A stretch of DNA of 18,845 nucleotides from a virus (IMGVR_UViG_2698536312_000002), one strand, 5' to 3'. Shown: positions 1 through 17,203, counted from the first letter of the stretch. Made by a program: numbers and translations. Notes: generated from the letters alone by a model not told the origin.

Positions 1-2156
1 CTGAAAATAGCCCGGCGTCAGCTCAATCCGCGACGGTGCTGCCGGTGCGGCAATCCGGAAGGTGGTGGTGGCAGGTTCACCCTGCTGGCCATAGCTGTTT
101 ATCGCCCGCACCGTCAGGGTGTATTCCCCGAGCGGCAGGCCGCTGAAACGGTGCTCCGTGTCTGCGGTGATGGCGGTGGTCACCAGTCTGGCATCCGTTC
201 CCTTACCACTGGTCAGGCGCAGACTGAAGCGCACACCCTTCACCACCCGCGGCGTGTCCCATTTCGCCTGCGCCAGATACTGGCCGTCAGGTGCTGCACT
301 GCCGGTGGGATGACGCTGTTCAGGGAACCTGACTGCGGCTCAAAGCGGGCACCGTTATCCACGATGGCTTCTTTTTCCAGTACGTGCTGCACCGCCGTGA
401 TGGCAAAGGTGCCGTCCGTGTTTTCCCGGACGGAGACACAGCGGAACAGGCGACGGCGCAGTGACGGCAGGGAGAGTCCCCACACCCCGTATGTCTCCAC
501 ACCATCAGGCAGGGTACTGACCTGTATCCGGTCCGGCGCGGGGTGTTCGGTGATGTCCACACTCACCGGCTTACCGCTGCCGTTAATCAGGTTCACCGTG
601 GCGGCACCGGTCTCCGGAAGTGTCACTTCACGGTCCAGCGTCAGAGTGCGGGTGGCAGCATCAATGGACAGGACACGTCCGCCGGTCAGGGTCCCGGCAT
701 AGTCGTTATCACAGATTTCAATGATGTCACCGGGTGTGTGCCGCAGCCCCTGAGACCCGAGCGTGAAATCCACCGTCTGCGTTTCCAGCAGTTCGGTCTT
801 TATCACCCACAGTCCGGCACGGTGGGCCTGACCGCGGCTGGTACAGCCGAACGCGTCCATCTTCAGCAGGTTGCGTCCGTAGCGCAGTATGGCTTCCGGG
901 TCTTCCACCAGTTCCGTGGAGGTCTGCCAGCCGTTCTGCGGGTCGGTATAATTCACCTCCACCGCCGTGTGCCGGTCCTTCAGGGCACTGAAGCTGTAGC
1001 GGAAACCCACGCCGTTATCATCCACCACCACATCGCTGTTGGTGTACGGCCACACCACATCCGACGGGCGGTCCTGAACAAACGTCAGCGTCTGGCCGTT
1101 CCATACCGGCATACAGCGCATCGCCGAGCAGAAATCACTGAGCACGTCCCATGCCTTACGCTGTTGTGCCAGGTACGCATTGAAGGTCATCCGCGGCTCG
1201 GTCTCCCCGAAACCATCCGGGACCGTCTGGTCGCAGTACTGCCCGATGGCATACAGCGCCCACTTGTCCACATCCGCCGCCCCCAGACGTTTTCCCATGC
1301 CGTAGCGCGGGTGAGTCAGCATGTCCCACAGACACCAGGCCGGATTGTTGCTGTATGCCGGTTTCAGGCTGCCGTCCCAGATACCACTGTACGTGCGTTT
1401 TTCCGGGTCATAGTTTGACGGCACCTGGATGATGCGACCGCGGATATGGTAGTTCACCGTCATCTGCTGGCCGCCGAACTGCTCCGCATCCACCTGCAGC
1501 CCCACAATGGCCGTGTTCGGGTAGCACTGTTTCACATCGATGATTTCGGTGTATGACGACCACAGCGTCTTATTCTGCAGCTGGTCCGTGGTGCTGTCCG
1601 CTGTCTCCCGGACCATCCGGATGTTAAAAGGACGGGGAGGCAGATTATCCAGAATCACCGACGCCAGAAACTGCGAGGTGGTCTTGCCGTTAATGGTGAC
1701 ATCCTTTTCTGTCACCCAGTTACCGTTACGCTGTAACTGAATCAGCAGGCGGACGGATGTCGGGTTTCGGTCACCCTTTGACGTGGTCTGCACCAGTGAC
1801 TGCACCCCGAAGGTAACCCGCAGGCGGTCAATGTTCGCGGACGTAATGGTGCGCGTCACCGGTTTTGCCTTCGTCACTTCCACGCCCAGTCCGGTTTCAG
1901 CACCGGAGGACTCAAAGCCTTCCGGTGGTGTCTGCTCCTGCTCCCCGGCGCGTCAGACCGCCGTCACACCGTGTATCACGGGATTACCGTCCGTGTCCGT
2001 CAGCGGGGTTTTGTTCACCAGGATACTCTGCAGTCCCTTCACCGGACCTTCTATCGGTCCCTCACCAATCGCATCAATCACGCTCATCATCTGCGTGGAT
2101 TTGAGATTATCCTTCGCCTCACGAGGCGTGTGTGCCTTACCGCCACCTTTTCCCAT
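1..2156 (-). pseudogene. J: Host-specificity / tail tip protein J (lambda gpJ homologue); 5-prime portion only, gene continues past the left window edge; reading frame interrupted
   Basis: Translation matches recalled lambda J over its N-terminal and central regions (e.g. PVTRTITSANIDRLR, FRIAAPAAPSRIELTPGYFQ). GGGGAAGG Shine-Dalgarno lies just upstream of the ATG at 2154-2156. An in-frame TGA sits at 1953-1955 and the frame changes near 280-290, after which the J-like translation continues in another frame to position 1. Confidence 0.85.
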
Positions 2157-2259
2157 ACAGCCTTCCCCTGAATAAATTAACCGCCACTTGCCATTCCGTA
2201 CAGAAGTCGGATATCCTTCGCCCGAAAAGCATGAAACACATTTCTGCCATGCTAAAGAG

Positions 2260-2299
2260 AAACCCCGGTATCAGCAGATACCGGGGTTTTCTTTCATGC
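2260..2299. terminator. Intrinsic-terminator-like hairpin, possibly bidirectional, in the I-J intergenic region
   Basis: Perfect inverted repeat aaaccccggtatc / gataccggggttt around a 4-nt loop, preceded by an A-rich tract and followed by ttttctttc on the plus strand; the minus strand also has a U-rich tail. Confidence 0.5.
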
Positions 2300-2361
2300 C
2301 CACCGATAATCCTGTTGGTTAAAACCGGTAATGGCATAAAAATTCTGAATATCTTCACATT

Positions 2362-2389
2362 TTCACAAACTGACTGTGGCGCGTATAAT
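2362..2389 (+). promoter_or_regulatory. Sigma70-like promoter: -35 TTCACA (2362-2367), 16-nt spacer, -10 TATAAT (2384-2389)
   Basis: Read directly from sequence; 5 of 6 match to the -35 consensus and 6 of 6 to the -10 consensus with 16-bp spacing. It points rightward, opposite to the late operon. Confidence 0.45.
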
Positions 2390-2395
2390 TTCTCT

Positions 2396-2492
2396 GCGTT
2401 AATTTTTTTGTCGTGATATAAGAATAATTCCTTACACTTAATCTTCGTAACTCTCCCGCAGTTCCTGTCCGCGATCACTGCGGGATTTTTTT
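2396..2492 (+). ncRNA. Candidate small non-coding RNA (about 95 nt) defined by the promoter and terminator in the I-J gap
   Basis: Predicted start about 7 nt downstream of the -10 element; the transcript is AU-rich, contains no ATG and no credible ORF, and ends at the intrinsic terminator at 2454-2500. Inference only, no expression data. Confidence 0.35.
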
Positions 2493-2500
2493 ATTCTTTT
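2454..2500 (+). terminator. Rho-independent terminator on the plus strand
   Basis: 8-9 bp GC-rich stem (tcccgcagt / actgcggga) with a 14-nt loop, followed by a T-tract (attttttttattcttttt). The complementary strand has no U-tract after the stem, so it is unidirectional. Confidence 0.5.
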
Positions 2501-3180
2501 TACCCCTGCCGCCCGATAACCACGACCTTTCCGCCCCCGCCTTCATCACGGGTGCTGATGTCCTGGGATATACGGCGGGAGCCAACCAGCATTTCCCCGT
2601 AAGGCACCGGCATCGGGTTCCCCTGGGCAATCATGTTATCCAGTGAGGAAAAGTACGTGTTCTGTCTGCCGTTATCCGTTGCGCGGTAATCCGGTGTTTT
2701 TGCCTTCGGGGCCAGCATCTGGGCCACACCGCCCAGAATCATGCTGGCTCCAAGTGAAAACAGCATCGTGGTGGCAGAAAAACCACCGGCTGCCAGGGCT
2801 GAACCCCATAACGCCATTGATGCCCCGGCAGTGAAGAAAGAGCCCACGATGGCTGCCGCCCCCAGCACAATCTGCAGTCCACCCTTTCCGGCCCCGGCCA
2901 GTCGCGGCACAATGTGGATGACCGTTCCCTCACCCAGCTGTTCGTGAAGACGGGCGTACACCGCCTCCGGTGCCGTGTCATAACCGGCAATACGTATCTG
3001 GTACCAGCCTTCGTTCATCTGACGGCGAAAGCCCGGCATCTGCATCGACAGGGCGCGAATGGCTTCCGCTGCCGTGTTCACATACAGGCTGAGGCGGCGG
3101 CCAAATCGTTGTAAATCCCCGTGAAGGCAGATGCGTGCCAGTGGCGGTGACGCCAGACTGAATGCGTTCGTCGTTGCCAT
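2500..3180 (-). CDS. I: Tail assembly protein I (lambda gpI homologue)
   Basis: 226-aa ORF matching recalled lambda I (ARICL.GDLQRFGRR, QNTYFSSLDNM); overlaps the K 3-prime end by 103 nt as in lambda. Confidence 0.9.
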   Translation of the reverse strand: MATTNAFSLASPPLARICLHGDLQRFGRRLSLYVNTAAEAIRALSMQMPGFRRQMNEGWYQIRIAGYDTAPEAVYARLHEQLGEGTVIHIVPRLAGAGKGGLQIVLGAAAIVGSFFTAGASMALWGSALAAGGFSATTMLFSLGASMILGGVAQMLAPKAKTPDYRATDNGRQNTYFSSLDNMIAQGNPMPVPYGEMLVGSRRISQDISTRDEGGGGKVVVIGRQG

Positions 3181-11824: not shown

Positions 11825-11837
11825 AAAAAAATCCCGT

Positions 11838-11858
11838 AAAAAAAGCCGCACAGGCGGC
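11838..11858 (-). terminator. Intrinsic-terminator-like hairpin with a U7 tract in the D-E intergenic region
   Basis: Minus-strand RNA reads GCCGC-CUGU-GCGGC then UUUUUUU, inside the 55-nt gap between D and E. Confidence 0.45.
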
Positions 11859-11879
11859 CTTTAGTGATGAAGGGTAAAG

Positions 11880-12212
11880 TTAAACGATGCTGATTGCCGT
11901 TCCGGCAAACGCGGTCCGTTTTTTCGTCTCGTCGCTGGCAGCCTCCGGCCAGAGCACATCCTCATAACGGAACGTGCCGGACTTGTAGAACGTCAGTGTG
12001 GTGCTGGTCTGGTCAGCAGCAACCGCAAGAATGCCAACGGCAGCACCGTCGGTGGTGCCATCCCACGCAACCAGCTTACGGGTGGAGGTGTCCAGCATCA
12101 GCGGGGTCATTGCAGGCGCTTTCGCACTCAATCCGCCGGGCGCGGTTGCGGTATGAGCCGGGTCACTATTGCCCAGCGGCTGGTAATGGGTAAAGGTTTC
12201 TTTGCTCGTCAT
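11880..12212 (-). CDS. D: Capsid decoration protein D (lambda gpD homologue)
   Basis: Start at the MTSKETF methionine (ATG 12210-12212), 9 nt downstream of AAGGG; 110 aa, the lambda D length. Confidence 0.9.

Positions 12213-13522: not shown

Positions 13523-17203
<3,681 letters not shown>

Follow-up and report, generated by a model that had tools for sequence, protein, structure and literature searches.

PasB was described by Hfq RIL-seq in EPEC O127:H6 strain E2348/69 (Pearl Mizrahi et al. 2021, PMC8550237) as an 83-nt small RNA (sRNA), validated by Northern blot, that is encoded in prophage PP6 between E2348C_1436 and E2348C_1437 (NC_011601.1, 1466343..1466261, minus strand; Table S6). Its level is strongly reduced in the delta-hfq mutant (log2 fold changes of -6.8 and -2.4) and is higher in the non-activating condition (LB, overnight static) than in DMEM; with 37 RIL-seq interaction partners, PasB ranks 15th by interaction number, and no common target motif was found by its describers (PMC8550237). 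A terminator U-tract of at least four U served as a criterion for an sRNA in that study (Table S6 legend, PMC8550237). Earlier, Hfq-CRAC had yielded the Hfq-crosslinked EcOnc22 on the plus strand of prophage Sp15 of E. coli O157:H7 Sakai, an RNA of about 85 nt on Northern blots that is destabilized without Hfq and has the homologues EcOnc23 in Sp14 and EcOnc24 in Sp11 (Tree et al. 2014, PMC4104026, Table S2). AgvB and AsxR resemble the element described below in being Hfq-binding prophage moron sRNAs of pathogenic E. coli, from families that combine a conserved 3' part with a variable pairing part, but they are encoded near the lysis and stx region and target other sRNAs (GcvB and FnrS).

The window, that is, the whole stretch of 18,845 bases that was analyzed, is the late (head and tail) region of a lambda-like prophage, with its genes on the minus strand. 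The gap between the tail assembly gene I and the J-like tail tip gene spans 2157-2499 (343 bp). On the left it is bordered by the start codon of J (2154-2156, minus strand), from which the translation, read down from 2156, begins MGKGGGKAHTPREAKDNLKSTQ..., and on the right by the I gene of the ORF list (2500-3180, minus strand; stop codon at 2500-2502), an identical copy of which carries the RefSeq annotation 'tail assembly protein'. The G+C content is 41.7% in the gap and 35.4% in its right half, against 60% in each of I and J. In phage lambda, the flanking genes are homologous to those of the window and are similarly ordered, but the I-J gap is only 60 bp long (I ends at 15444 and J starts at 15505) and lacks the sRNA unit; no lambda record is among the best 30 phage matches listed for the spacer. 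The initial annotation, which had described a 343-bp, AT-rich insert and had put the lambda gap at about 60 bp, is thus borne out on both points.

The right half of the spacer carries a compact transcription unit on the plus strand. Its sigma-70 type promoter (2362-2389) consists of the -35 element TTCACA (2362-2367), a 16-nt spacer and the -10 element TATAAT (2384-2389), an 11/12 match that justifies its earlier description as near-consensus and rightward-pointing. Scanning of positions 1800-3000 returned 3 promoter-like sites, compared to 0.7 +/- 0.7 in shuffled sequences. Across alleles, the -10 element is kept as TATAAT, AATAAT or CATAAT, and the -35 hexamer is variable. Directly upstream of the -35 element and overlapping it lies an A/T-rich block, ATAAAAATTCTGAATATCTTCACATTTT (2336-2363, plus strand).

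From the promoter-derived start, the predicted sRNA, an allele of the PasB/EcOnc22 family as argued below, extends over 97 nt (2396-2492, plus strand). The published 5' end of PasB, which comes from RNA-seq coverage, corresponds to window positions of about 2409-2411, which leaves an uncertainty of about 15 nt in the start; the sRNA would be about 83 nt long if it began at the PasB position. The interval 2396-2492 contains no AUG, and its sole GUG and UUG open frames of 2 codons, in line with the absence of a start codon asserted previously. A small-protein reading of the locus was considered and rejected, given that there is no AUG in the transcript and that the six-frame ORFs over the gap (113, 94, 44 and 20 aa) are unsupported. 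The interval folds with -19.4 kcal/mol (z -2.1), modestly better than its shuffles. Direct reading of the sequence reveals the ARN triplets AAG-AAU-AAU at 2420-2428 (plus strand), a possible Hfq distal-face site, given that the ARN motif has been tied to Hfq (PMC4104026). The E2348/69 allele has AAC-AAA-AAC-AAC in the equivalent place, with different letters, and a purine-rich A-R-N run of varying letters precedes the seed in most alleles.

The unit ends with an intrinsic terminator (2454-2492, plus strand), in which CCCGCAG (2456-2462) pairs with CTGCGGG (2479-2485) and is followed by U7 (2486-2492), 7 nt before the I stop codon. The terminator scan reported a stem at 2468-2484 with a T-run; when 2396-2492 is folded, the stem extends over 2454-2485, with U7 directly after it. 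On the opposite strand, an A-run precedes the hairpin and no U-run follows it, which makes the terminator unidirectional, as originally annotated. A search for the terminator sequence as text in the literature returned no match.

The unit occupies the same slot as PasB. In RefSeq, the neighbors of PasB are a tail assembly protein gene (ending at 1466255) and gpJ (starting at 1466496); thus, both units lie in the I-J gap of a lambdoid prophage and are transcribed against I and J, and the distance of the 3' end from the I stop codon is 6 nt for PasB and 7 nt for the window unit. Aligned to the 83-nt PasB, the window sequence is identical in 65 of 89 columns, including all of the last 25 nt (3' arm and U7), and over the promoter and the region upstream of it, 68 of the 75 columns with a base in both sequences are identical. 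The PasB Northern probe maps to window positions 2465-2487 with 3 mismatches. The upstream block, the -10 element and the initial transcribed sequence are near-identical between the two, and the RNA body diverges. In both, an unstructured body is followed by a single terminator hairpin; the terminator loop of the window allele is 5 nt longer, its J-proximal half of the spacer is a longer, different module with a different hairpin, and its predicted seed is UCCUUACACUUA compared to UCCUUCACAUUG in PasB.

A covariance model built from 12 alleles, with window-type alleles excluded, matches 2396-2492 on the plus strand over all model positions (77.8 bits, E=3e-14). The second-best match of the model in the window, at 11825-11912 on the minus strand between the head decoration and major capsid ORFs, scores 15.5 bits (E=0.15) and is most likely merely a terminator-like hairpin. 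The window unit shares with the PasB/EcOnc22-24 family its homology, the location between I and J, and a promoter and a terminator with a U-tract of its own; its predicted seed and, by duplex predictions, its target set are not those of E2348/69 PasB. A differing seed marks a distinct allele and is no argument against membership in the family. Judged by its sequence, the window unit is a divergent allele of the PasB/EcOnc22 sRNA family, and from this kinship we infer its expression, seed and mode of action.

The same locus was already represented in the 2014 data set. The published EcOnc22 coordinates fall between two Sakai genes, ECs_2944 for host specificity (J) and ECs_2945 for tail assembly, and the Sp15 gap (NC_002695.2, 2902691-2902930) contains a PasB-like promoter, body and terminator on the matching relative strand. 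The probe used for EcOnc22/23/24 matches the Sakai I-J gap exactly over 23 nt on the right strand, and the first 10 nt of the probe as printed mismatch Sp15. In the current RefSeq record, the EcOnc22 peak coordinates are about 120 bp off the gene, so it is the probe sequence, the strand and the neighboring genes that support the link to PasB; by these marks, EcOnc22/23/24 are the same locus and family as PasB. This identity is not stated in Table S6 of PMC8550237 or in a recent preprint on PasB (bioRxiv 10.64898/2026.05.13.724894). The Sakai EcOnc22 allele and the window allele both have UAAUCUUC, the terminator stem and U7; the Sakai allele differs in having UCCAUAACGUUAAUCUUCAUCG, a diverged promoter spacer and CTGCATTA at the start.

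Whether the element belongs to a known family had been left undecided in the initial annotation, and the two routes to an answer diverge: the literature provides the family, PasB/EcOnc22, and Rfam does not. At the gathering score, the search produced 0 matches in the 18,845 bases of the window; with E values up to 10, positions 2100-2560 gave just sub-threshold matches to hairpins, of which the best (27.3 bits against a gathering score of 48) covers only a terminator-like hairpin. There is no Rfam family for PasB/EcOnc22. AgvB and AsxR (RF02702 and RF02703) are absent from the matches up to E=10 in 2100-2560. Identity with these two RNAs was rejected: their genes are located downstream of PR', are 51-60 nt long and show no sequence relation to the window unit.

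The nucleotide search that had been proposed as a check showed the spacer to be widespread. By BLAST, the full 343-bp spacer is present in 1662 of the 5426 complete E. coli genomes, with copies of at least 99% identity in 633 chromosome or plasmid records and no annotated RefSeq feature beneath them; the right half (2336-2499) is present in 1847 of the genomes, in up to 9 copies per genome. In Stx1a- and Stx2c-converting phages, the right half is about 95% identical. The unit lies between I and J in every locus inspected, including those of eight further alleles, and of the prophage loci with a gene for a close relative of the window I protein, all 77 that were examined have the complete arrangement of promoter, RNA and terminator. 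Conservation in 1847 genomes together with the 77/77 loci is the best evidence that the unit exceeds chance. A promoter pattern search of species-representative genomes, a narrow test because the exact pattern was required, matched only E. albertii, which fits a restriction of the unit to Escherichia. In Escherichia albertii NBRC 107761 (NZ_BBMY01000220.1), the spacer is almost identical to that of the window, J-proximal module included, so the window allele crosses a species border within the genus.

Alleles gathered in three ways, by BLAST, by the promoter pattern in IMG/VR and by the I protein, comprise 44 distinct RNA sequences. Their consensus fold consists of an unstructured body of about 60 nt and one terminator hairpin with a variable loop; the 7-bp stem CCCGCAG/CTGCGGG is invariant and accordingly lends no covariation support. 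Diversity was calculated per 10-nt block in the I-anchored sample (37 haplotypes picked by I protein). It amounts to 0.00-0.11 in the 30 nt upstream of and overlapping the -35 element, 0.17-0.39 in the RNA body, 0.03-0.10 in the terminator and 0.00-0.10 in the adjacent I coding sequence. The low value for I arises partly by construction because the loci were chosen by I similarity; this choice has no bearing on the higher diversity of the body relative to the promoter and terminator of the same unit. The block at 2336-2363 is the most conserved part of the spacer and is near-invariant in the allele alignment, and this conservation next to a variable -35 hexamer suggests that it is possibly an UP element or a regulator-binding site.

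The distribution of PasB was recently surveyed within Escherichia by blastn with a word size of 28, and PasB was reported to differ by just a few nucleotides (Zhu, Shabalina and Storz, bioRxiv 10.64898/2026.05.13.724894). The longest exact word shared by the window sequence and the 83-nt PasB is 25 nt, so the survey should not seed on the window allele, and the low diversity reported probably reflects the word size.

Variation among the alleles centers on the core of the predicted seed. The predicted seed of the window RNA, UUCCUUACACUUAAUCUUCGUA (2428-2449, plus strand), is composed of UCCUU, a conserved anti-Shine-Dalgarno motif, and AAUCUUC around an allele-specific core. Both UCCUU and (U/G)AUCUU(C/U) are conserved in the body and flank the variable core, which is CACAUUG in E2348/69, AACAUUG in O157 and ACACUUA in the window; AAAGUUA, ACAGUUA, AACGUUA and others were also found.

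In the portion of the RIL-seq tables consulted, PasB is represented by 53 rows (52 from the non-activating condition), nearly all of them with mRNAs, in CDS or 5'UTR segments, and PasB is almost always the 3' member of the chimeras (PMC8550237). The partners in these rows include E2348C_2648, the napF 5'UTR, map, yhhX, hflX, the fabR 3' end and bfpB, as well as the raiA and tolC 5'UTRs and espC (PMC8550237). The 2026 preprint proposes that the PasB seed lies just upstream of the terminator (bioRxiv 10.64898/2026.05.13.724894). Duplexes were predicted for the six top partner segments in 24-nt local windows, as full-length RNAduplex yields unrealistic end-to-end duplexes. Four of the six are predicted to pair with one PasB segment, CUCCUUCACAUUGAUCUUC, and the other two pair elsewhere. 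In napF, the Shine-Dalgarno sequence and the start codon, GUG, both lie within the predicted duplex (-26.6 kcal/mol), and the duplex with the fabR 3' end involves AAUGUGAAGGA at the ribosome-binding site just upstream of yijD (-17.3 kcal/mol). A shared PasB segment that is predicted to pair at ribosome-binding sites fits both the seed placement of the preprint and ordinary translational repression.

At the napF, yijD, yhhX and map sites, the window allele is predicted to pair with only -10.5 to -12.1 kcal/mol, compared to -17.3 to -26.6 kcal/mol for PasB. Its own seed core and this weaker predicted pairing suggest that the window allele probably controls other targets than PasB; by these duplex models, the window RNA most likely works like PasB but on other targets. 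If targets are allele-specific, the partners of the window RNA would share a motif complementary to UCCUUACACUUAAUC (UAAGUGUAAGGA-like), as opposed to the AAUGUGAAGGA-like sites of PasB.

The half of the spacer next to J forms a module of its own, which in the window type is 197 nt long and includes a second hairpin at 2260-2299, on the J side of the sRNA promoter. Its arms are 2260-2272 and 2277-2289, and its loop is AGCA. This hairpin is stable on both strands (-27.2 kcal/mol, z -6.4, on the plus strand; -28.3 kcal/mol, z -5.1, on the minus strand), and an A-rich run to its left and a U-rich run to its right make it terminator-like in either direction, in agreement with its initial description as probably bidirectional; it was not among the hits of the simple terminator scan. 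In one related locus, precisely the 47 bp with this hairpin are absent, a clean deletion between TTTCT repeats. The short J-proximal module, as in E2348/69, contains a different hairpin, preceded by an A-run that gives it a late-strand terminator reading, and this hairpin shows one compensatory change (GGCACC/GGUGCC to GGCAUC/GAUGCC). Strong late-strand terminator-like hairpins were observed in both kinds of module (for these hairpins and the deletion: window 2260-2299; locus L001, around 1930-1960; locus L149).

In a third type of module, a sodC-like (Cu/Zn superoxide dismutase) gene with its own terminator is located upstream of the sRNA promoter in the same orientation; it was seen in the IMG/VR prophage loci L205 and L168, where the I-J gaps measure 851-903 bp. 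The sodC-like gene and the other modules identify the I-J junction as a slot for moron insertion and cargo.

The J gene of the window (1-2156, minus strand) is a pseudogene: codon 68, which specifies F in lambda J, is here an in-frame TGA (1953-1955), and the reading frame changes around position 240. In ATCC 25922, the identical spacer adjoins an intact gpJ, and in O157 strain 4276, the O157-type allele lies beside a frameshifted gpJ. The presence of the sRNA unit next to a broken J in the window and in strain 4276 indicates that the unit persists in defective prophages. In the ATCC 25922 region covered (NZ_CP009072.1, 3948539-3972881), the prophage with the identical spacer (3960539-3960881) abuts potB, with a truncated tail fibre assembly gene adjacent, and in the same tail region, an Ail/Lom-family gene and a class I SAM-dependent methyltransferase gene are found among the tail fibre genes.

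Taking these observations together, we consider it highly probable that the right half of the spacer is an autonomous moron sRNA gene of the PasB/EcOnc22-24 family, whose product is Hfq-dependent and pairs in trans in the lysogen. The promoter at 2362-2389 would fire rightward, against the silent late operon, and the resulting RNA, of about 83-97 nt, would end at the terminator and U7, at position 2492. Its A/U-rich, largely unstructured body with the ARN triplets, the predicted anti-Shine-Dalgarno seed at 2428-2449 and the 3' hairpin with its U-tail form the layout of an Hfq-dependent base-pairing sRNA; of the sequence features tied to Hfq, the window allele has the U7 tail and the ARN triplets. 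In the lysogen, the RNA would be bound by Hfq and would then pair in trans with mRNAs of the host and of mobile elements, in many cases at ribosome-binding sites, so that translation would be repressed. The window copy keeps the upstream block and the terminator of the family and has its own seed core, and its target set would probably be different. Homology, synteny and the anatomy of promoter and terminator are established for the window copy itself; expression, Hfq dependence and mRNA partners are known from other alleles, the bodies of which differ in about a quarter of the positions. The initial proposal of a moron-type, Hfq-dependent prophage sRNA is therefore supported through homology and synteny with PasB and EcOnc22-24.

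Because a late-strand terminator is invariably placed between J and the sRNA gene, a minor explanation by action in cis survives, under which the RNA could cut or destabilize the late transcript between I and J, or transcriptional interference could occur, and the expression of J and the downstream tail fibre genes would thus be tuned, with the 2260-2299 hairpin acting as a late-strand terminator and any trans interactions being secondary. The geometry is suggestive: in its I-J stretch, the late mRNA contains the perfect complement of the RNA, the promoter faces the late operon head-on, the RNA runs toward I without leaving the late transcription unit, and the sRNA unit is tightly linked to the tail module (77/77 loci), in which both kinds of J-proximal module contain a hairpin with a late-strand terminator reading, one of them with a compensatory change. 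However, about 240 nt separate the RNA from the start of J, too far for it to mask the J ribosome-binding site, and it is kept where J is dead, in the window and in O157 strain 4276. In lambda biology, the Q-modified polymerase is expected to read through intrinsic terminators, which also counts against a role of this kind. Furthermore, the EPEC RNA was detected in uninduced lysogen cultures and has many trans partners, and an action in cis puts no constraint on the letters of the body, which leaves the conserved UCCUU and AAUCUUC and the variation of the seed core unexplained. As a whole, the cis explanation appears unlikely.

It is very improbable that the spacer serves only as punctuation, with terminators or insulators at a tail-module junction, or is an inert insertion remnant with an unused promoter-like site. 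Although the spacer does contain two strong hairpins and the I-J junction accepts other cargo, such as the sodC-like gene, so that remnants could accumulate at this insertion hot spot, the upstream block and the -10 element are among the best-conserved parts of the spacer, the promoter has an 11/12 match, expression is documented for two other alleles that share this promoter, and at least 99% identity is kept across 633 records.

Hardly credible, finally, is the anti-sRNA alternative of the initial annotation, a sponge that titrates a core sRNA in the way of AgvB and AsxR: such anti-sRNAs exist in EHEC prophages (PMC4104026), ARN triplets are present as in AgvB, and one PasB row in the portion of the RIL-seq data consulted has a non-mRNA partner, an intergenic RNA next to pasA, but the window unit differs from AgvB and AsxR in location, length and sequence and has no Rfam match, and the remainder of the 53 rows in that portion are nearly all with CDS or 5'UTR segments of mRNAs.

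As a family of trans-pairing prophage sRNAs, the element and its kind are already known from the work of 2014, 2021 and 2026; what is new with respect to these three sources (PMC4104026, PMC8550237 and the 2026 preprint) is the window allele and the recognition that EcOnc22-24 and PasB are one family. The sRNAs that were named independently as EcOnc22-24 (2014) and PasB (2021) are thereby tied to a third allele that is very common in extraintestinal E. coli (633 records), and a stretch of DNA in about a third of complete E. coli genomes that has neither a RefSeq feature nor an Rfam model is recognized as a regulatory RNA gene. In practical terms the advance is modest: the family is defined and an alignment suited to Rfam is available, with no new mechanism. 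We give an even chance to the broader proposition that the I-J slot holds one sRNA scaffold, with a conserved upstream block, the UCCUU and AAUCUUC motifs, an invariant terminator and a swappable core, in at least 44 alleles, and that the window allele is an unstudied regulator with targets of its own that was missed by the survey. The EPEC partners in the portion of the RIL-seq data consulted include napF, tolC and raiA along with the virulence genes map, bfpB and espC. If alleles differ in their targets, strains with different tail modules would differ in how host genes are controlled post-transcriptionally.
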